Positions 8,298-27,525 of a stretch of 35,274 bases of DNA are shown here, piece by piece; positions within the stretch are counted from its first letter, which is position 1, and each line of letters opens with the position of its first letter. A program made the translations under genes and the position numbers. Where the stretch lies: IMG/VR virus record IMGVR_UViG_2897352509_000012; one strand, written 5' to 3'. Source of the DNA: a virus (taxonomy: Duplodnaviria; Heunggongvirae; Uroviricota; Caudoviricetes). Under the pieces are notes generated by a model, which had not been told where the DNA came from, did not search any database, and was given only the letters and a program-made list of their open reading frames with translations.

Positions 8298-8891
8298 CTA
8301 TTTGTCCCGGTTGGCTAAGGGCTGACACAATTTATTTTTTGTCACTGAGGCGGGGAATTTTTTATAGAGCGTGGACAGGCCAATATCAAAAATCAGTGCC
8401 ACGCGTTGACGTGATTCCCCTGCAGCCAGCAACCGCCCGGCCTGCTCCCACTCACTCGCGGTGAGTTTCGGACGTCTGCCACCAATACGACCTTTGGCTC
8501 TGGCCGCCTCCAGTCCGGCGCGTGTCCGCTCGACAATGAGTTCTCGTTCCATTTCAGCCAGGGCACCCATCACATGAAAGAAAAAACGCCCCATCGGCGT
8601 GCTGGTATCAATAGCATCCGTCAGGCTGCGAAAATTAATGCCGCGTTCGCGCAGTTCCTCAACCAGAATGACCAGATGCCGCATACTACGCCCCAGCCTG
8701 TCCAGCTTCCAGACTACCAGAGTGTCACCTGCTGATAATGTTCTGAGCAGTTTTTTTAGTCCCGGTCGGTCGGACTTCGTGCCGCTGATTTTATCCTCAA
8801 AAATCAGCTCACATCCTGCGCACTCCAGCGCGTTACGCTGCAATTCCGTGTTCTGGTCATTTGTTGATACACGAACATAACCTATACGCAT
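8298..8891 (-). CDS. Serine recombinase, Hin/Gin/Pin/Cin-family DNA invertase
   Basis: MRIGYVRVSTNDQNTELQ with catalytic Ser in YVRVSTxxQ, resolvase fold and C-terminal HTH; start taken at MRIGY. Confidence 0.85.
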   Translation of the reverse strand: MRIGYVRVSTNDQNTELQRNALECAGCELIFEDKISGTKSDRPGLKKLLRTLSAGDTLVVWKLDRLGRSMRHLVILVEELRERGINFRSLTDAIDTSTPMGRFFFHVMGALAEMERELIVERTRAGLEAARAKGRIGGRRPKLTASEWEQAGRLLAAGESRQRVALIFDIGLSTLYKKFPASVTKNKLCQPLANRDK

Positions 8892-8915: not shown

Positions 8916-9452
8916 ATGACACATCTTTCAACATCATATTTAACCGATTTCATAAACGTTGGTTTGGGAGAAGGCTCTGCATTACCTGTTGGTGTGCCTG
9001 TTCCATGGCCTTCAGCCACACCGCCAACAGGCTGGCTGAAATGCAACGGTGCGGCATTTTCTGCTGAAGAATACCCGGAACTGGCAAAGGCTTATCCAAC
9101 AAATAAATTACCTGATTTACGCGGTGAGTTTATTCGTGGCTGGGATGACGGGCGCGGTATTGATGCAGGACGTGTTTTATTGAGTATTCAGGCCGGAATG
9201 CTGGAAAAGCATAACCACTATTGGGGAATCTGGACTTCACGAACTAACGACCAGACTCTGGAAAGTTTTACAGGCACCACGATTTTAAAACAAATCACGC
9301 CCCTGTCTCCGGCCATTAACTTCGATAATTACCCAATTCCCAACCCGGCTATTACAGAGGGTGGTGTTGTTGCGGCAACGACTAAACCTGCAGGTGCGAA
9401 TGAAACACGCCCACGAAATGTCGCTTTTAACTATATTGTGAGGGCTGCATAA
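8916..9452 (+). CDS. Alternative tail-fibre C-terminal variable segment, silent in this orientation
   Basis: ORF crosses the crossover site at ...NVGLGEG...; sequence after the site is the alternative C-terminus; the ATG at 8916 is probably not a real start. Confidence 0.55.
   Translation: MTHLSTSYLTDFINVGLGEGSALPVGVPVPWPSATPPTGWLKCNGAAFSAEEYPELAKAYPTNKLPDLRGEFIRGWDDGRGIDAGRVLLSIQAGMLEKHNHYWGIWTSRTNDQTLESFTGTTILKQITPLSPAINFDNYPIPNPAITEGGVVAATTKPAGANETRPRNVAFNYIVRAA
8948..8973. repeat. Inversion crossover site (left), hix/gix-like
   Basis: TTCATAAACGTT-GGTTTGGGAGAAGG; inverted partner at 10849..10876; shared TGGTTTGGGAGAAG half-site with AA/TT centre. Confidence 0.6.
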
Positions 9453-10489: not shown

Positions 10490-11689
10490 TTACTCACCAA
10501 CAGCCCACCAACTGTAATTCATCGATACCGTGTCGCTGGTTGATGACGTTCTGTAAGCAGAATTAAAGCCGGTTAACGTTGGGCCTTCTGCAGTCATCAC
10601 GAACCCTCGCCCAGCGCCTAAAGGCGCACCGCCATCACCAGAATGAGTAAGCATGGCGCAGTCCGCTTTTTTGGGGAAAGGGATGCTGAATGTAATTCTC
10701 ATTGTTTGCGTCGATAATGTCGGCGTAACCGCACCACGACCATATTGCAGGATTTTCCCGTTGGGTAATTTCATCCATCCATCACCACTGGCAAAAGAGG
10801 CCATGTCCGGTATCTGATTTTCCCCTGTCCCCACATCCCGTTTTGCCGCTTCTCCCAAACCAAGGTATGCGAGAAGACCAGCAACATCCTTTCCACTCAA
10901 ATTAGTAAGCGTATTGTCCAGCGGTTGTTTGCCTGCCAGCGCATTGTTAATGGTGGTGCTGAATTTCGGGTCATTGTTAATGGCTGCGGCAATTTCTTTC
11001 AGTGTGTCCAGCGTGGCTGGCGCACCGTTAATCAGAGCGGTAATAGCGGCCTGAACAAACTCAGTGGTCGCAATCCGCGAGGTGTTATTTCCTGCGGCAG
11101 GCGTCGGCGCTTTTGGTTCTCCGGTAAATGTCGGATTATGTTTCTGCGCATACTGGGTATGAGGATCCTGTGCGGCAATGTGGTTTCTCATCTGGTCATC
11201 CACATACAGCCTTAATTCCAGGACTTCATCATCCACGTATTTACGGGTCGCCAGTACCACCGACGGGTCGATTTTCAGCGTGATGGCTTCGGTATTCGTG
11301 ACAACCAGAATCATGCGGATAGTCTGGGTGCGTCCGCTGCCTTCCTGCAACTGCGGTTTGTACGTTTCCGGGCAGTTTGCCACCGCAATGAGTACACCTT
11401 CATCATCATAAAGACCAATCTCACGGATCCAGAACCCTCCCTCGTTTTCAGGGATGATTTGCTCCGCAATAATCTGGCTCTGATTGTTCGGGTCAACACT
11501 CAGAAGATTCAGCGGTGCAATGCGTTTCTGGTTAATCAGTATTGTCTGTGCCGGGTCTGGTGTCGGCAAGACACCATTCGCATCACCAACGGCCATTTGC
11601 GTCAGATTCAGCTTACTGCCGAGCATCGTCGCGTTAGCCAGCCGTGCTGCGCCCTGATTAGTCAGAATGGCGTAGTATTTCACTGTCAT
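10490..11689 (-). CDS. H: Tail fibre protein H; constant N-terminus (about 10863..11689) fused to variable C-terminus (10490..10862)
   Basis: N-terminus MTVKYYAILTNQGAARLANA recognised as P2 gpH-like; crossover site inside ORF at ...AYLGLGEAA... Confidence 0.85.
   Translation of the reverse strand: MTVKYYAILTNQGAARLANATMLGSKLNLTQMAVGDANGVLPTPDPAQTILINQKRIAPLNLLSVDPNNQSQIIAEQIIPENEGGFWIREIGLYDDEGVLIAVANCPETYKPQLQEGSGRTQTIRMILVVTNTEAITLKIDPSVVLATRKYVDDEVLELRLYVDDQMRNHIAAQDPHTQYAQKHNPTFTGEPKAPTPAAGNNTSRIATTEFVQAAITALINGAPATLDTLKEIAAAINNDPKFSTTINNALAGKQPLDNTLTNLSGKDVAGLLAYLGLGEAAKRDVGTGENQIPDMASFASGDGWMKLPNGKILQYGRGAVTPTLSTQTMRITFSIPFPKKADCAMLTHSGDGGAPLGAGRGFVMTAEGPTLTGFNSAYRTSSTSDTVSMNYSWWAVGE
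10849..10876. repeat. Inversion crossover site (right), hix/gix-like, inside H
   Basis: CTTCTCCCAAACC-AA-GGTATGCGAGAAG, inverted relative to 8948..8973. Confidence 0.6.
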
Positions 11690-20515: not shown

Positions 20516-20622
20516 CCTCCGCCATCAGTCCCGGATGGCTTATCACTGACACAACAGCACCTTAGCGAATCGCGGGGCGCGACTCAGTAGCCTTGCCGTG
20601 TATTCATCACGGCGAGGTATTC
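20516..20622. promoter_or_regulatory. Divergent late promoter region between O and P (expected Ogr-dependent)
   Basis: Intergenic spacer between divergently transcribed late operons; by P2 analogy; no motif confidently identified by eye. Confidence 0.4.
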
Positions 20623-22395
20623 ATGACCATCACCACAGACACCACTCTTTTACACGACCCGCGTCGTCAGGCGGCGCTGCTGTACTGGCAGGGGTTTTCC
20701 GTGCCGCAGATTGCCTCCATGTTGCAGATGAAACGCCCGACGGTGCAGAGCTGGAAACAGCGCGACGCCTGGGACAGCGTTGCCCCCATCAGCCGTGTCG
20801 AAATGAGTCTGGAAGCGCGGCTGACCCAGCTCATCATCAAACCGCAGAAAACCGGCGGGGACTTCAAGGAAATTGACCTGCTGGGACGCCAGATTGAACG
20901 ACTGGCACGGGTCAACCGTTACAGCCAGACCGGCAACGAGGCAGACCTTAATCCGAACATCGCTAACCGCAACAAAGGCGGGCGTCGCAAACCGAAAAAG
21001 AATTTTTTCAGTGACGAGGCCATCGAAAAGCTGGAGCAGATTTTCTTTGAGCAGTCTTTCGAATATCAGTTGCACTGGTATCGCGCCGGGCTTGAGCACC
21101 GCATCCGCGATATCCTGAAATCCCGCCAGATTGGCGCGACGTTTTATTTTTCCCGCGAGGCGCTGCTGCGCGCCCTGAAAACCGGTCATAACCAGATTTT
21201 TCTGTCGGCCAGTAAAACGCAGGCGTATGTGTTCCGCGAATACATCATCGCCTTTGCCCGGCTGGTTGACGTTGACCTGACCGGTGACCCGATTGTCCTG
21301 GGCAATAACGGCGCAAAACTGATTTTTCTCGGCACCAACTCCAACACCGCACAGAGCCATAACGGCGACCTGTACGTCGACGAGATTTTCTGGATCCCGA
21401 ATTTTCAGGTACTGCGTAAGGTGGCATCAGGTATGGCCTCACAGAGTCACCTGCGCTCGACCTATTTCTCCACCCCGTCCACGCTGGCGCACGACGCCTA
21501 CCCGTTCTGGTCGGGTGAACTGTTTAACCGGGGACGCGCCAGCGCCGCTGAACGCGTGGAAATCGACGTCAGTCATAACGCCCTTGCCGGTGGGCTTCTC
21601 TGTGCGGACGGCCAGTGGCGGCAGATTGTCACCATTGAGGACGCCCTGAAAGGCGGCTGCACGCTGTTCGACATTGAGCAGCTCAAACGCGAAAACAGCG
21701 CCGACGATTTTAAAAACCTGTTCATGTGTGAATTTGTTGACGACAAGGCGTCGGTGTTCCCGTTCGAGGAGCTGCAACGCTGCATGGTCGACACGCTGGA
21801 AGAATGGGAAGACTATGCGCCGTTTGCCGCCAATCCGTTCGGCTCACGTCCGGTATGGATTGGTTACGACCCGTCACACCGTGGCGACAGCGCCGGATGC
21901 GTGGTGCTGGCACCGCCGGTGGTGGCCGGTGGCAAATTCAGGATCCTTGAGCGTCACCAGTGGAAAGGCATGGACTTTGCCACCCAGGCAGAATCCATCC
22001 GCAAACTCACCGAAAAATACAACGTCGAATACATCGGTATTGATGCCACCGGCCTCGGTGTCGGCGTGTTCCAGCTCGTGCGCTCGTTCTATCCCGCCGC
22101 GCGCGATATCCGCTACACACCGGAAATGAAAACCGCAATGGTGCTCAAGGCAAAAGACGTTATCCGCCGTGGCTGTCTGGAATACGACGTCAGCGCCACC
22201 GACATCACCAGCTCGTTTATGGCTATCCGCAAGACCATGACCAGCAGCGGGCGCAGCGCCACCTATGAGGCCAGCCGCAGCGAGGAAGCCAGCCACGCCG
22301 ACCTCGCCTGGGCGACCATGCACGCCCTGTTAAATGAGCCACTCACCGCCGGTATCAGCACCCCGCTGACATCCACCATTCTGGAGTTTTACTGA
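20623..22395 (+). CDS. P: Terminase ATPase (large) subunit P, 590 aa
   Basis: MTITTDTTLLHDPRRQAALLYWQGFSVPQIA...; start at internal Met gives P2 gpP length. Confidence 0.9.
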   Translation: MTITTDTTLLHDPRRQAALLYWQGFSVPQIASMLQMKRPTVQSWKQRDAWDSVAPISRVEMSLEARLTQLIIKPQKTGGDFKEIDLLGRQIERLARVNRYSQTGNEADLNPNIANRNKGGRRKPKKNFFSDEAIEKLEQIFFEQSFEYQLHWYRAGLEHRIRDILKSRQIGATFYFSREALLRALKTGHNQIFLSASKTQAYVFREYIIAFARLVDVDLTGDPIVLGNNGAKLIFLGTNSNTAQSHNGDLYVDEIFWIPNFQVLRKVASGMASQSHLRSTYFSTPSTLAHDAYPFWSGELFNRGRASAAERVEIDVSHNALAGGLLCADGQWRQIVTIEDALKGGCTLFDIEQLKRENSADDFKNLFMCEFVDDKASVFPFEELQRCMVDTLEEWEDYAPFAANPFGSRPVWIGYDPSHRGDSAGCVVLAPPVVAGGKFRILERHQWKGMDFATQAESIRKLTEKYNVEYIGIDATGLGVGVFQLVRSFYPAARDIRYTPEMKTAMVLKAKDVIRRGCLEYDVSATDITSSFMAIRKTMTSSGRSATYEASRSEEASHADLAWATMHALLNEPLTAGISTPLTSTILEFY

Positions 22396-23429
22396 TGAGC
22401 AAGAAAAAAGGGAAAACACCGCAACCTGCGGCAAAAAAAATGACCGCCAGCGCCCCGAAAATGGAGGCATTCACCTTTGGTGAGCCGGTGCCGGTACTCG
22501 ACCGCCGTGACATTCTGGATTACGTCGAATGCATCAGTAACGGCAGATGGTATGAGCCACCAATCAGCTTTACCGGTCTGGCAAAAAGCCTGCGTGCTGC
22601 CGTGCATCACAGCTCACCGATTTACGTTAAACGCAATATTCTGGCCTCGACATTTATCCCGCATCCGTGGCTTTCCCAGCAGGATTTCAGCCGCTTTGTG
22701 CTGGATTTTCTGGTGTTCGGTAATGCGTTTCTGGAAAAGCGCTACAGCACCACCGGTAAGGTCATCAGACTGGAAACCTCACCGGCAAAATATACCCGCC
22801 GTGGTGTTGAGGAGGATGTTTACTGGTGGGTGCCGTCCTTCAACGAGCCGACACCTTTCGCGCCCGGCTCCGTGTTTCACCTGCTGGAGCCGGATATTAA
22901 TCAGGAGCTGTACGGCCTGCCGGAATATCTCAGCGCCCTTAACTCTGCCTGGCTGAATGAATCGGCCACGCTGTTCCGCCGCAAGTATTACGAAAACGGC
23001 GCTCATGCCGGATATATCATGTACGTCACTGATGCCGTGCAGGATCGCAACGATATCGAAATGCTCCGCGAAAACATGGTGAAGTCGAAAGGCCGCAACA
23101 ACTTTAAAAACCTGTTTCTCTACGCCCCACAGGGAAAAGCCGACGGTATTAAAATTATCCCGCTCAGTGAAGTGGCAACGAAGGACGATTTTTTTAATAT
23201 CAAAAAAGCCAGCGCCGCAGACCTGCTGGACGCGCACCGCATCCCCTTTCAGTTGATGGGCGGCAAGCCGGAGAACGTCGGGTCGCTGGGTGATATTGAG
23301 AAAGTGGCAAAGGTCTTTGTCCGCAATGAGCTTATCCCGTTACAGGACAGGATCCGCGAGATAAACGGCTGGCTCGGTCAGGAGGTCATCCGCTTTAAAA
23401 ACTACTCACTGGACACTGACAACGGCTGA
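22395..23429 (+). CDS. Q: Portal protein Q, 344 aa
   Basis: Length/synteny match to P2 gpQ; ATGA overlap with P stop. Confidence 0.9.
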   Translation: MSKKKGKTPQPAAKKMTASAPKMEAFTFGEPVPVLDRRDILDYVECISNGRWYEPPISFTGLAKSLRAAVHHSSPIYVKRNILASTFIPHPWLSQQDFSRFVLDFLVFGNAFLEKRYSTTGKVIRLETSPAKYTRRGVEEDVYWWVPSFNEPTPFAPGSVFHLLEPDINQELYGLPEYLSALNSAWLNESATLFRRKYYENGAHAGYIMYVTDAVQDRNDIEMLRENMVKSKGRNNFKNLFLYAPQGKADGIKIIPLSEVATKDDFFNIKKASAADLLDAHRIPFQLMGGKPENVGSLGDIEKVAKVFVRNELIPLQDRIREINGWLGQEVIRFKNYSLDTDNG

Positions 23430-23434
23430 ACATC

Positions 23435-23456
23435 GCCGCCTGCGGGCGGCTTTTTT
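23435..23456 (+). terminator. Rho-independent terminator after Q
   Basis: GCCGCC-TGCG-GGCGGC hairpin followed by TTTTTT, 6 nt after Q stop. Confidence 0.6.
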
Positions 23457-23598
23457 ACACCCCGTCATCACGCCCTCACACGCTCACCACCGCGCAAAAC
23501 AGCCCGCAGACAAACCAACGCCCCGGCGCACAATCTAAACGCCATCACGACGCGCTCAGACGCTGAAAAAATAAAATCAGCACCACCGCCAGCGCGCA

Positions 23599-23617
23599 GT
23601 GCTTTCCCCGCCTCGCC
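23599..23617. other. cos cohesive-end site
   Basis: GTGCTTTCCCCGCCTCGCC is the reverse complement of the P2 19-nt cohesive end GGCGAGGCGGGGAAAGCAC as I remember it; lies beside Q as in P2. Confidence 0.7.
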
Positions 23618-23746
23618 CGCCCGCTTCGTGGGGCGGTTTTAATGCAGATGCATTATGAGCCCTGAGCTGCGCCTAACGTGACACAGCTTCACTAAATAGA
23701 CTCATTATCCACATGCAATCTAATTCAAAAAAATGCATGTATAGTA

Positions 23747-25717
23747 TTAAAGGTCATCAATTAAACCTAAAGGCAAACCGTCCTCACCAACCGAGCTATA
23801 ATGAGCGATAATATTCGAAAGTTCACCAGTAGAAAACGAATTAGGCAAATCATTATCAACTAATATAATCTGGCACGGAACATTTTTTCTTTCTGCTTTT
23901 TGAACTGTATTCAATAGTTGTTCATAAATATTTTGATACTTCATCGGATCTGACATTCCCTCAAGGTCATCCTCGAATGCAAGAGTTTCTTTTGAATATT
24001 TTTCCTTGGTCTGTTTCCCTAAATATTTGCCAACCGTATCAAATATCAAAAGTAAAGGATGGTTAACATTATGATCTATTGCATAATCAAGAATAGACAA
24101 AAGATACCCAATAGAAGAAATAGTTCTCAAACCTCCGGATGTTATTTTAAAATATTCTTTTTCTCTTATAACAGGAATGTAATAGCTTTCAGAGATTTTT
24201 ATCCCCGTTCTGTTTTTGATATTAATACTCTTCAAATACTGACTAAATCTATCACCCAAACCTTGTAAAATGCCCTCCATGCTAGGTGCGTTTTTCTTTA
24301 ACGCCTCCAAGCGTTCAGTTAATGCTTCAATATCTTTTCTCAGTACCTGATACTTTTCAAGCAGTTCCTCTTGCTGGTTTCTAACCTTCAAATCTTTTAC
24401 TAACTGCTCCCTAACCTTCTCATTTTTTGAGATCTCTTTAATATAAAAATCTCTCTGAGTCAAGAATGGTGTAATCATTGACTGGCTTTCTTCGTCAATC
24501 AATTCTCTCAACTCGTCAAGTCGTTCATCTAATTCCTTTTTATAACCTGATTCTTTTTTTAATTTAAATGACATTTCTGAGATCATGTCATTAATATTTC
24601 GTCTACGTCGACTAAGTGAATTCAACTCTTCATTAAGATCTTTTTCTGATGAAATTTCAAATGGAAAATCAGAATCATCTATTTTAATGTGGCTATCACA
24701 GACTGGACAGGAAAATACTTCCTTATCCAATACACCAATGCGAGAATTTGCTGTTTTAATCGCTTTGAGTTTTTCAATATCATTATCATAGTCATTTTTT
24801 AACCGCGAATATTTATCAATCTTATCCTCAAGCGCAGTAATATTTAATATGCACTCTTTGTATTTAAGCGAAATAAAATTGTGAGCATCTTTCAATTCTG
24901 TATACTGTATGGAATCCGCTTTCATATTTTTATCGAGAGCAGACAAACCTGCAACAAGTTCTTCTAAAACAAGATCTATCCTATTAATCTCATCATCAAT
25001 TGATTCAATCGTTTCATAGTCTGTATCGCGAAGAAATTCAGATATTATCTGATACTTCCTATTTAATTCCGTTACTAAACTACTTTTTGCAGATATTTCA
25101 CCTTGGAGTCTGGCGATGCTTTCATCCAACACATTGAACATGTATTTAAAAACTTCTTTCGTAAATGCGTAGCGGGACCAATCACCCAATCGCAAGAAAG
25201 ATTTACTACCAATATCATCCTGACTTACATAAACAAATTTATATATATTTCTAAAACTTAACCTGCGCATCTGTGAATGAGCTTTAGAAGGAGACACCTT
25301 AATTTCAATCTTTGGAAAATTAAGACTATCAAGTAAAAACTCCGAAAAAACACCATCAACATTTGATAATGGGCTATAATTAGGAGCGTATTTTTTCGGA
25401 AAATGTTTATGTAAATCATCAAACTTACAACGATAAACTTCTATTGCTTTTTTATGATCATAGATATCTCTTACGATTGTGAATACAGTATCATTGATCA
25501 CTACTTCAAGAGCAGCATAGTTTACTGATGTTTTTATTTCATCTGCTAAATCTATAGAGCTAGCACCTAAAAGATAATTAATAAACTCCAGAATGCTTGA
25601 CTTACCTGTGTCAGAGTCTCCGTAGATAACATTGAGACCTTTATAAAAAGTAGTGACGTAGTTTTTACGAACGCCAACAAGAATCAAACTATTGATATTG
25701 AGATATGATTTCATCAT
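23747..25717 (-). CDS. SMC/Rad50-like ABC ATPase with coiled coil and CxxC zinc hook (cargo gene 3)
   Basis: Walker A GDSDTGKS (res 33-40), heptad-rich middle with CPVC (res 337-340), signature TSGGL (526-530), Walker B LLLIFD (555-560). Confidence 0.75.
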   Translation of the reverse strand: MMKSYLNINSLILVGVRKNYVTTFYKGLNVIYGDSDTGKSSILEFINYLLGASSIDLADEIKTSVNYAALEVVINDTVFTIVRDIYDHKKAIEVYRCKFDDLHKHFPKKYAPNYSPLSNVDGVFSEFLLDSLNFPKIEIKVSPSKAHSQMRRLSFRNIYKFVYVSQDDIGSKSFLRLGDWSRYAFTKEVFKYMFNVLDESIARLQGEISAKSSLVTELNRKYQIISEFLRDTDYETIESIDDEINRIDLVLEELVAGLSALDKNMKADSIQYTELKDAHNFISLKYKECILNITALEDKIDKYSRLKNDYDNDIEKLKAIKTANSRIGVLDKEVFSCPVCDSHIKIDDSDFPFEISSEKDLNEELNSLSRRRRNINDMISEMSFKLKKESGYKKELDERLDELRELIDEESQSMITPFLTQRDFYIKEISKNEKVREQLVKDLKVRNQQEELLEKYQVLRKDIEALTERLEALKKNAPSMEGILQGLGDRFSQYLKSINIKNRTGIKISESYYIPVIREKEYFKITSGGLRTISSIGYLLSILDYAIDHNVNHPLLLIFDTVGKYLGKQTKEKYSKETLAFEDDLEGMSDPMKYQNIYEQLLNTVQKAERKNVPCQIILVDNDLPNSFSTGELSNIIAHYSSVGEDGLPLGLIDDL

Positions 25718-26226
25718 TTCTCCTTGAAGACTTGATTTATAACAGAGTTTAACTTAGAGGTAGGCAATGCTTGTAGCGGTAACAATGCTTCGGATAGTCG
25801 TTTTATTTCTTTAAAATATCCATCAGTCAATGAGCTAGCAAATTCCTTACCTTTTTCAGATAAAAATAATTTAACACTCTCATTATTTTTTTTCTCAGCT
25901 GAGAGCAATCCCCGCAATGACATAATTTTTATAAGATATTTCACTTTGGAATTGTCGAATAAGATATCTACATTTGTTGAAAAACTCTTTATTGTATAAG
26001 TTAACTGGGACTCGACACAAGCAGGCTTTTTCCCCGAAACTGTAAGAGCATAATCAATTTTTGATGGGTTTTTTATCAGATACATAAAAATTTGTATTTT
26101 ATTAATATCTAATGATAACACTCCTTTTTTGCTATGAGATAATATAGATATAGCAATGGCAAGCATAGCAAAATTCAAGCTATACTCTTCATCAAGAGGA
26201 ATATACGGCAAGTTATTTTTCTTCAT
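25714..26226 (-). CDS. Small protein of unknown function, 170 aa (cargo gene 2)
   Basis: ORF overlaps both neighbours (14 nt and ATGA overlap), same AT-rich composition; no recognisable motifs. Confidence 0.6.
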   Translation of the reverse strand: MKKNNLPYIPLDEEYSLNFAMLAIAISILSHSKKGVLSLDINKIQIFMYLIKNPSKIDYALTVSGKKPACVESQLTYTIKSFSTNVDILFDNSKVKYLIKIMSLRGLLSAEKKNNESVKLFLSEKGKEFASSLTDGYFKEIKRLSEALLPLQALPTSKLNSVINQVFKEK

Positions 26227-27436
26227 GATTACCTCGCCGTAATTGCTCCAAAGTTTCTACGCTGGTTTCAGATGACCAGACAATATCCCTGTCATTTTTG
26301 TTAGCCAGTTGATGCAACATTCCTTTCTTATGTATCGTTTCTAAACTTTTTATAAGAGAATCTAACGACGACTTATCCTCTTGGGCTATTCGTCTATGAA
26401 CAGCAGCAATAAATTTATCTGGGGAAATTGAATTCGCGATATATTGCTCATACTCTTCCTGGTAAATCTCCCTTATTTTAGAATACAAATGACCAAGTAG
26501 TTTCCTATCGTAATCACTCGTAAAAATATTTCTCGCAAGCTCAGCATTATAATAATATTCCTTTGCATGCATAGCGATATCCTGATGTATATCTGCGACA
26601 ATCATTTTTAAGACGAAATACTCATTATCATATTGTTTCTCATCAGAAAAACGCTCAACACATATCTTCTTGGGTGCTTCTAAATTTATCTGCTGAATAA
26701 ATTGCTTTACCGCAACAAACACTGTAGACGAGCTGTTTTCGGGCTTGCAAATTGAGCTATGCCCTTCATTAACTGCAATTGAGTTATTTCGTTCACTATC
26801 CATCGGTAATGCGCTTTTTTTATCAACTATAGTGTCATGAGAACCATAAACATATCTAGTGATAGGAAGTTTTTTGCTACAATTTATCCAGCGCCTATTC
26901 AACGTATCGGTCGCTTCACTTAACAATCCAAGATCTACTAACTGAGCATTTGAAGATACCATTGAAGTTATATTCGCCAATTTAGCACCAAAGTGAGGGA
27001 CTGCTAACGAAATGAATCCAATTATATTAGATTGTTCCTCATGCTCAACTTTTTTTAGAATTAGATTTTTTGATATTACCCCCCCCATACTATGGGCGAT
27101 TATTATAATTCGAGAGTAATCACTTAGCGTTACCCTAATCTCAGTATACAATAACTCAGCTATTTCATCAGTTGGTAAATTTCTCTCTAACTTATTTTTC
27201 TTAGAGAAAATACGAGCCCATAATCCTGACGTTTTAGCATACGTTTGTGTAAATTTGGTGAAATAATTGAAACATGCAATATCAAATACATTGCCAATGT
27301 CTTCATCTTCTGCTAATAGTTTTGGAAATGAAGTTTCTTTATTAAAGTTCCATGTTTCCAAACCACCATTTAATCCATGTACAAATAGTATCAGGCTATC
27401 TTTTTTCTCGTGGCTTATCCATTCAACCATGCTCAT
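26213..27436 (-). CDS. Lipase-like alpha/beta hydrolase fused to C-terminal helical domain, 407 aa (cargo gene 1)
   Basis: HG oxyanion motif (LILFVHGLNGG), AHSMG nucleophile pentapeptide (Ser116), downstream GSHDT (Asp201) and EGHSS (His226); C-terminal about 160 aa helical, Tyr/Glu-rich. Confidence 0.75.
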   Translation of the reverse strand: MSMVEWISHEKKDSLILFVHGLNGGLETWNFNKETSFPKLLAEDEDIGNVFDIACFNYFTKFTQTYAKTSGLWARIFSKKNKLERNLPTDEIAELLYTEIRVTLSDYSRIIIIAHSMGGVISKNLILKKVEHEEQSNIIGFISLAVPHFGAKLANITSMVSSNAQLVDLGLLSEATDTLNRRWINCSKKLPITRYVYGSHDTIVDKKSALPMDSERNNSIAVNEGHSSICKPENSSSTVFVAVKQFIQQINLEAPKKICVERFSDEKQYDNEYFVLKMIVADIHQDIAMHAKEYYYNAELARNIFTSDYDRKLLGHLYSKIREIYQEEYEQYIANSISPDKFIAAVHRRIAQEDKSSLDSLIKSLETIHKKGMLHQLANKNDRDIVWSSETSVETLEQLRRGNHEEK

Positions 27437-27525
27437 ATGCTTTTCTGCCGTGTATAAAAATTAAACTATAACAAACAATTCCTCAACAATAACATATTGT
27501 TACCCCGTTTGACCGTTTTTTTCAA
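27437..27525 (-). promoter_or_regulatory. AT-rich putative promoter region upstream of the cargo cassette
   Basis: Minus strand shows TTGTTG ... TTTAAT-like hexamers; assignment by eye only. Confidence 0.3.

Follow-up and report, generated by a model that had tools for sequence, protein, structure and literature searches.

Lamassu defence systems combine an effector protein (LmuA) that carries a family-specific C-terminal domain (CTD1-12), a small middle component (LmuC; MC1-8, in type II systems) and an ATPase with a split head and a coiled coil (LmuB). In the nuclease-type systems, an LmuB dimer and LmuC sequester one LmuA, and DNA ends or replication intermediates, together with the ATP-dependent engagement of the LmuB heads, release LmuA to form an active oligomer (bioRxiv 10.1101/2025.03.14.643221; PMC12663957). 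What LmuB senses is DNA ends and origins of replication, not phage-specific proteins, and the LmuA effector classes listed for the short Lamassu systems include "lipase" (PMC12663957). A CTD8 effector with an MC4 middle component and an ATPase resembling the SMC (structural maintenance of chromosomes) proteins is among the catalogued combinations of the ABC (ATP-binding cassette)-three-component systems (ABC-3C), according to earlier work cited in bioRxiv 10.1101/2025.03.14.643221. For other Lamassu systems, protection against phages or plasmids by abortive infection has been shown to require the ATPase of LmuB, the effector LmuA and LmuC, and Lamassu members in prophage hotspots were noted (Millman et al. 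preprint). P2-like phages have their main defence hotspot in the gpA-gpQ interval (PMC13586616). Here we describe a three-gene cassette, lmuA-lmuC-lmuB, located in such an interval at positions 23747-27436 of a 35,274-nt stretch of DNA (IMG/VR record IMGVR_UViG_2897352509_000012, the whole of which is called the window below). The cassette is very probably a complete and intact type II ("short") Lamassu of the lipase-effector subtype, carried as hotspot cargo and working by the abortive-infection mechanism proposed below.

A described relative from the same species is Lamassu Ec-Lipase, an E. coli short Lamassu of clade H (Haudiquet et al., PNAS 2025, PMC12663957). Ec-Lipase protects against lambda-vir, and this protection requires the Walker A lysine of LmuB and the catalytic histidine of the lipase. 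Its overexpression is toxic unless the catalytic histidine is mutated, its activity is lost on mutating the predicted A-B, B-C, A-C or DNA interfaces, and the interface mutants support a 1A:2B:1C complex like that of Vc-Cap4 (PMC12663957). The cassette resembles Ec-Lipase in its E. coli origin, in its LmuA(lipase)-LmuC-LmuB composition, in a short LmuB with a CxxC hook, and in the presence of the triad histidine and the Walker A lysine, and Ec-Lipase serves as its functional model. The DdmABC system of V. cholerae, or Lamassu Vc-Cap4 (PDB 9NY5, 9NYG), is likewise a type II short Lamassu with the same three roles, and its LmuB shares the fold of the cassette LmuB (9nyg_B, E 4.4e-16). However, its effector is a Cap4 nuclease whereas that of the cassette is an alpha/beta hydrolase, the zinc hook present in the cassette LmuB has been lost from the V. 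cholerae protein (PMC12663957), and a phmmer comparison of the cassette with the Vc-Cap4 proteins detected no sequence similarity. Among solved structures, the LmuB nearest in sequence to that of the cassette belongs to Salmonella enterica LmuACB (PDB 9HQU, 9HQX), which shares with it the deviant Walker B motif and the A-C-B order. The two differ in the effector, since Salmonella LmuA is a nuclease active as a tetramer and cassette LmuA is an alpha/beta hydrolase; the lipase LmuAs with CTD8 or CTD9 domains are predicted to form dimers or larger rings, not tetramers (bioRxiv 10.1101/2025.03.14.643221).

The three genes and their products

The window is identical to a locus of E. coli O157:H7 strain TR01 (NZ_CP033605.1) and spans yegQ to yegS; the RefSeq annotation of this identical locus shows a complete P2-like prophage inside it, integrated between yegQ and yegR. 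A first-pass annotation, made by reading the DNA without database searches, had proposed three tightly coupled minus-strand genes at 23747-27436, and their coordinates and lengths proved exactly as claimed. The ORFs (open reading frames) of gene 1, lmuA (26213-27436, 407 aa), gene 2, lmuC (25714-26226, 170 aa), and gene 3, lmuB (23747-25717, 656 aa), are co-oriented on the minus strand and form one operon of exactly three genes in the order A-C-B, with overlaps of 14 nt between lmuA and lmuC and of 4 nt (ATGA) between lmuC and lmuB. To judge from their sequences, these are not chance ORFs, because genes 1 and 3 extend over 407-656 codons at 33% GC, the genes are translationally coupled, and the ratios of non-synonymous to synonymous substitution rates (dN/dS) are 0.06-0.08. 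The first-pass annotation had also seen that the cassette is much more AT-rich than the phage backbone. It has 33.1% GC against 53.0% in the rest of the window and 52.6%, 52.9% and 57.6% in the flanking genes A, Q and P, and its edges are visible in the GC profile as a step that is sharp at about 23650 and more gradual over 27550-27850.

All the defining features of a Lamassu that can be tested on the sequence are present, namely an LmuB with a split head, a coiled coil and the ATPase motifs, an LmuA effector with its C-terminal domain, an LmuC of the MC type and an operon in A-C-B order. The features of the Lamassu-Lipase subtype are present as well: LmuA contains a Ser-Asp-His alpha/beta hydrolase, and the short LmuB carries a CxxC hook at its apex. 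The succession of effector, small middle component and coiled-coil ATPase had been taken in the first-pass annotation as the architecture of ABC-3C or Lamassu-family systems, and the profile searches that it recommended bear this out, with PADLOC models of LmuA, LmuC and LmuB matching the three proteins over their full length and Pfam recognizing CTD8 and MC4. Whether this particular pairing of hydrolase and ATPase had been described was a question left open at that stage; it is already described, in the PADLOC models, in the RefSeq names and in the lipase class and the experimentally validated Ec-Lipase of PMC12663957. Because PADLOC has full-length models, RefSeq uses ABC-three-component names and Lamassu-Lipase is a described subtype, the cassette is not new but an already catalogued and routinely annotated Lamassu. 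PHROGs also holds dedicated full-length families for LmuA, LmuC and LmuB, all three under "unknown function".

LmuB matches the PADLOC LmuB model (PDLC03862) over residues 2-656 with an E-value of 1.5e-235. RefSeq names it "AAA family ATPase", and its 656 aa place it in the "short" LmuB length class (classes of PMC12663957). The AlphaFold2 (AF2) model, with a predicted local distance difference test score (pLDDT) of 85.5, has a split head with strands at residues 6-152 and 515-641 and helices at 199-326 and 358-498; two long antiparallel helices (270-326 and 358-476) enclose an apical loop (327-357) that bears the CPVC motif. The Foldseek search of the PDB with this model returned Lamassu LmuB chains at the top (9uxh_F, 2.5e-21; 9hqx_B, 6.9e-19; 9nyg_B, 4.4e-16). 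Seven of the eight best fold matches are solved Lamassu LmuB chains (9uxh, 9hqx, 9hqu, 9nyg, 9ux7; E 2.5e-21 to 1.2e-14), and Rad50, SMC and JetC rank behind them. Single-sequence searches of LmuA, LmuC and LmuB against the PDB sequences gave nothing useful, and homologue profiles alone reached 9hqu and the lipase structures; the LmuB profile found the LmuB chain 9hqu_A of the Salmonella Lamassu (E 4.2e-11) and aligned its CPxC motif with that of the cassette protein.

The conserved motifs of LmuB, all encoded on the minus strand, were compared in 62 homologues. In the Walker A motif G33-D-S-D-T-G-K39-S40 (25598-25621), residues G33, D34, T37, G38, K39 and S40 are invariant, as are C337, P338 and C340 of the zinc hook C337-P-V-C340 (24698-24709). 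The motifs of the C-terminal head (24035-24139) comprise the ABC signature S527-G-G529 (24131-24139), where S527, G528, G529, L530, R531 and T532 are invariant, and a deviant Walker B, LLIFD560-T561 (24035-24052), where D560 and T561 are invariant; a deviant Walker B has been described for Salmonella LmuB too (bioRxiv 10.1101/2025.03.14.643221). The PADLOC match, the AF2 model and the Lamassu LmuB fold matches agree with the earlier description of gene 3 as an SMC/Rad50-like ABC ATPase with a coiled coil and a CPVC zinc hook.

Entries in nr and PHROG label LmuB homologues "exonuclease SbcC" or "Rad50", and LmuB has weak NCBIfam and Pfam matches to SMC, Rad50 and RecF. On these grounds the cassette might be regarded as a prophage DNA-repair or recombination module of the SbcC/Rad50 kind accompanied by an unrelated esterase, and as no defence system. 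LmuB does have a split ABC head, an antiparallel coiled coil and a CxxC hook in common with Rad50-Mre11/SbcCD, but its coiled coil is much shorter (the whole protein has 656 aa), no SbcD/Mre11 nuclease gene is adjacent, and its partners carry the ABC-3C-specific CTD8 and MC4. Furthermore, LmuB matches its PADLOC model at full length at 1e-235 and its best folds are Lamassu, not Rad50. A repair module is therefore hardly credible, and is effectively refuted by the tests run.

Other assignments of the ATPase were tried and rejected. For SbcCD/Rad50-Mre11, the NCBIfam Rad50 and SMC scores were 15-26 bits, compared with cut-offs of 567-1000, and no SbcD/Mre11 gene was found in or near the cassette. 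For Wadjet (JetABCD), the JetC matches in PADLOC were marginal (E 1.4e-3 and 0.042), and the cassette contains no jetA, jetB or jetD. Gabija and PARIS-type ATPases gave only marginal matches to their hidden Markov models, and their partner genes are absent.

A separate observation concerns a 522-aa LmuB database entry (P0125), which represents a cluster of 1268 sequences labelled "exonuclease SbcC [Escherichia coli]", is 100% identical to the cassette LmuB over the aligned region and is without the C-terminal half of the head. It could be a widespread truncated allele or a contig-end artefact. LmuB is full-length in the window, in EC4115, in SCU-115 and in strain B.

LmuA matches the PADLOC LmuA model (PDLC03851) over residues 3-406 (E 3.5e-108) and is called "ABC-three component system protein" in RefSeq (WP_000063136.1). 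Its hydrolase domain, about aa 1-255 (26672-27436, minus strand), is a DUF676/PGAP1-like alpha/beta serine hydrolase ("lipase"); the Pfam matches in this N-terminal half are to DUF676 (4e-09) and PGAP1 (3.6e-07), and to Abhydrolase and LCAT too. The C-terminal helical domain, aa 265-389 (26270-26644, minus strand), corresponds to the Pfam domain CTD8 of ABC-3C systems (PF20284, E 1.7e-35), with profile positions 1-126 of 127 covered, and is presumed to be the docking and oligomerization module of LmuA. The alignment of homologues places the catalytic triad at S116 (codon 27089-27091), D201 (26834-26836) and H226 (26759-26761), on the minus strand, and H115-S116-x-G118-G119, D201 and H226 are invariant among 65 LmuA homologues, down to 39% identity. 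The alpha/beta-hydrolase core of the AF2 model is confident (pLDDT about 90). Its Foldseek matches are esterases, thioesterases, monoacylglycerol lipases and the membrane phospholipase A PlaF (6i8w), with E-values of 5e-9 to 1e-7, and the best matches also take in generic serine hydrolases and haloalkane dehalogenases. The profile of LmuA homologues matches the PDB "putative lipase" 7x2p at 8.4e-07, and also PGAP1 and group XV phospholipase A2. Together, the Pfam domains, the modelled core and the esterase and lipase folds uphold the proposal that gene 1 is a lipase-like alpha/beta hydrolase fused to a helical C-terminal domain, and the residues named in that proposal are in place in both proteins: S116 in AHSMGG, K39 in GDSDTGKS, and CPVC at 337-340.

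Gene 2, by contrast, had been described as having no recognizable motifs, which was wrong, since LmuC matches the ABC-3C domain MC4 of Pfam (PF20290, E 5e-27) and the PADLOC LmuC model (PDLC03869, residues 3-169, E 1.5e-52). Its RefSeq name is "ABC-three component system middle component 4".

Mechanism, distribution and alternative readings

The mechanism that we propose is modelled in all its steps on the solved and tested nuclease-type Lamassu systems and on the one tested E. coli Lamassu-Lipase. An LmuB dimer, joined at the CPVC hook and with its coiled coils folded, would hold an LmuA monomer inactive together with LmuC by way of CTD8. When a phage or plasmid invades, the Rad50-like heads of LmuB would recognize its DNA ends or replication intermediates, and their ATP-dependent engagement, through K39, would release LmuA. 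Free LmuA could then self-associate through CTD8, switching on the Ser116-Asp201-His226 hydrolase, which would degrade an essential cellular ester, most probably inner-membrane phospholipid. By such abortive infection, the infected cell would die or stop growing before it could release phages, to the benefit of the lysogen population and of the prophage. There is an analogy, in function only, with CapV, the patatin-like phospholipase effector of CBASS (cyclic oligonucleotide-based antiphage signalling system), which is switched on by a cyclic nucleotide: in both cases a cytoplasmic lipid hydrolase would be held off until an infection signal arrives and would then bring about abortive infection. 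Unlike CapV, the cassette LmuA has a DUF676/PGAP1-type fold, and its activation is presumed to occur by release from an SMC-like sensor.

The last step of this mechanism has an alternative, in which the cassette is a Lamassu whose effector cleaves another ester, a thioester or an amide (in an acyl-carrier, peptidoglycan or lipoprotein intermediate, or in a protein) and not membrane lipid. The presence of thioesterases, generic serine hydrolases and haloalkane dehalogenases beside monoacylglycerol lipases among the top LmuA folds is in keeping with this, the Pfam matches to DUF676, PGAP1 and LCAT are moderate in significance, and no substrate is given for Lamassu lipases in PMC12663957 or in bioRxiv 10.1101/2025.03.14.643221. 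On the other hand, the nearest families, that is, DUF676 "putative serine esterase", the glycosylphosphatidylinositol inositol-deacylase PGAP1, LCAT/group XV phospholipase A2 and 7x2p, act on lipids, and the top fold matches include PlaF (6i8w), a phospholipase A of the membrane. We consider a substrate other than lipid rather unlikely.

A second alternative to the proposed lipid-cleaving, anti-phage Lamassu concerns the target, which, as for V. cholerae DdmABC, might consist mainly of plasmids or further mobile DNA and less of lytic phages; yet the O157:H7 strains with the cassette retain the plasmid pO157. DdmABC, a type II Lamassu, eliminates plasmids besides defending against phages (Millman preprint), and LmuB recognizes DNA ends and origins of replication, not proteins specific to phages (PMC12663957). 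The related Ec-Lipase has nevertheless been validated against lambda-vir (PMC12663957), and the gpA-gpQ hotspot of P2 is populated by anti-phage systems (PMC13586616). A predominantly anti-plasmid role is, in our view, distinctly unlikely.

The conservation and distribution of the cassette speak for a functional and mobile system. Of 5426 complete E. coli genomes, 96 carry it, always in the chromosome, and the carriers include the O157:H7 strains EC4115 and TW14359 and the classical strain B; EC4115 shares all three protein accessions with TR01. No copy was found in 72,556 plasmids, and none in 50,697 deposited phage genomes at the DNA or protein level. Genes in A-C-B order are also present in a P2-like prophage of Citrobacter, where they likewise lie between gpA and the portal gene, and in a conjugative element of P. 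aeruginosa, beside TraG-type genes. Comparison with the Citrobacter freundii copy (88% nucleotide identity) gave dN/dS values of 0.063 for lmuA, 0.077 for lmuC and 0.081 for lmuB, which indicate that all three genes are under strong purifying selection. In E. coli B (NZ_CP115178.1, 2103832-2107521), ATCC 11303 and AS19, the same cassette is found in a defective P2-like prophage at yegQ/yegR, with truncated portal and morphogenesis genes and an intact cassette; the proteins of E. coli B are 97.3% (LmuA), 97.6% (LmuC) and 97.1% (LmuB) identical to those of the window. BL21(DE3) has an empty yegQ-yegR junction. E. coli also has another clade of Lamassu-lipase systems (P0162 / P0100), which is larger than that of the cassette and about 52% identical to it; its LmuB cluster has 736 members.

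Several points weigh against the reading of the cassette as a Lamassu-Lipase that works as proposed. The AF2 model of LmuA has a confident hydrolase core, but its C-terminal part, for which the first-pass annotation recommended a structure prediction, is all-helical with low confidence (pLDDT 30-70) and allows no structural conclusion on this domain. The fold matches not only lipases but also generic esterases and thioesterases, and "lipase" is a family label. The tested Ec-Lipase is probably a different homologue from the cassette, because the numbering of its published mutants, LmuB K42A and LmuA H215A, fits neither the cassette, with K39 and H226, nor the second E. coli clade P0162, with K38. 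No experiment on this allele was found in the literature. In the region upstream of lmuA, the promoter scan gave 13 matches compared with 17.2 expected from shuffles, which is not above chance; one of them is a weak sigma-70-like match at 27525-27496 (9 of 12 positions). A 33% GC island may, in addition, be silenced by H-NS. Finally, E. coli B has an intact copy that is 97% identical and yet serves classically as the permissive host for T phages, so that native expression evidently gives no broad protection, and native protection would be narrow at best.

Some of these observations would also be accounted for if the cassette were a genuine Lamassu carried as transcriptionally silent native cargo (silenced by H-NS, for example) and active only on derepression or prophage induction, in which case the lysogen would gain little or nothing in ordinary conditions. 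Consistent with such silence are the low GC content of the island (33%, compared with 53% around it), the promoter matches no more numerous than in shuffles, and the 97%-identical intact copy in E. coli B, which is nonetheless a standard T-phage-sensitive host. However, dN/dS values of 0.06-0.08 on all three genes and the intact ORFs in the copies examined argue for use, and silencing and function are not mutually exclusive. Silent cargo is thus a possibility to be reckoned with, if somewhat on the unlikely side, and a Lamassu-Lipase in use remains the reading that we prefer.

The exchanged module and replication gene A

The cassette was proposed to lie between cos/Q and gene A, where P2 carries tin and old, and this position is confirmed: cos is at 23599-23617, replication gene A is at 27526-29808, beyond the cassette on the lmuA side, the P2-like backbone is conserved on both sides of the cassette (up to 23653 and again from 27839), and the placement is the same in Citrobacter. 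The tin and old genes of P2 are prophage exclusion genes dispensable for the phage, Old being an OLD-family nuclease and Tin excluding T-even phages; they share with the cassette the gene A-cos hotspot and no kinship in protein or mechanism. The cos site was located on the minus strand, 130 bp from the lmuB stop codon, by an exact match to the P2-type cohesive-end sequence GGCGAGGCGGGGAAAGCAC, a 19-mer that we take to be P2 cos from the P2 literature. The terminase (20593-22395) and portal (22395-23429) genes, both on the plus strand, read towards cos.

P2-like phages match the window at 95-98% over 23430-23653, and none does so beyond 23653. Their homology (megablast, 93-95%) resumes at 27839, inside gene A, and no DNA similarity to P2-like phages was found over 23654-27838 among the deposited phage genomes. 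At the left edge of this cargo module, a spacer of 38.7% GC (23654-23746) separates the lmuB stop codon from the resumed P2 backbone. At the other edge is the divergent 3' end of gene A (27526-27838, minus strand), comprising the last 104 codons or so at 44.7% GC. This tail is about 49% identical in amino acids to the gpA tails of P2-like phages, compared with 93-95% at the DNA level for the rest of gene A. When the 5426 complete E. coli genomes were searched, those with the tail proved to be exactly the 96 with the cassette, and the tail is contiguous with the cassette in Citrobacter as well. Because the backbone match stops at 23653 and resumes at 27839, and because the gene A tail co-occurs with the cassette, the exchanged unit is, on these alignments, about 23654-27838, which is larger than the three genes and begins within a gene that the phage needs. 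The simplest explanation is that the unit passed between P2-like phages by homologous exchange, through two crossovers, one within gene A and the other close to cos.

The cis-acting gpA and the origin region of P2 map to this part of gene A. Lamassu is reported to sense DNA ends and the replication origins of phages (PMC12663957). The cassette might then be not a free-standing insert but a module co-adapted with the replication initiator of its carrier phage, in which the variant gpA tail or origin would let the phage replicate without triggering its own Lamassu. If this were true, the module would have a built-in device by which rolling-circle replication and exposed cos ends would not set off the phage's own abortive infection; we hold this to be very improbable.

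The 89 bp that separate lmuA from the gene A stop codon (27437-27525, minus strand) have 30% GC and are the presumed promoter/operator region. They contain a perfect palindrome, AACAATA-TGT-TATTGTT (27485-27501), which lies upstream of lmuA, 25 bp downstream of the end of gene A, and could serve as an operator or form a weak terminator hairpin. An Rfam search of 23300-27900 found no RNA family.

As a locus, the cassette adds one more catalogued Lamassu-Lipase to the best-known defence hotspot of P2-like phages and changes little, and standard detection by PADLOC, Pfam and RefSeq PGAP names already covers it. The remaining interest lies in the activation and the substrate of the lipase and in the fact that the gene A tail is linked to the cassette. 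For the study of lipase-effector activation and substrate, the O157:H7 clade with EC4115 and TW14359, which has the identical proteins, and E. coli B offer convenient native backgrounds. We may also speculate that a Lamassu responding to lambdoid replication could influence the dynamics of Shiga toxin (Stx) phages in O157:H7.

Other features of the prophage

Two further features of the prophage were recorded. A serine recombinase gene (8298-8891) lies between the tail sheath and tail-fibre genes, where P2 has Z/fun, and two matches to crossover sites of the Gin/Hin/Cin type are found at 8947-8972 and 10850-10875 (0.01 expected by chance). These sites flank about 1.9 kb in which genes for a tail-fibre C-terminus and for tail-fibre assembly are oppositely oriented, and a truncated tail-fibre gene lies next to them; the arrangement looks like an invertible host-range switch resembling the G segment of Mu. 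An imperfect direct repeat of 40 nt, at 1562-1601 and 33506-33545 and with the shared core CATTGACCACATCGA, brackets the prophage of about 31.9 kb, between yegQ/ogrK and int/yegR, and the repeats with this core are probably the attachment-site cores.

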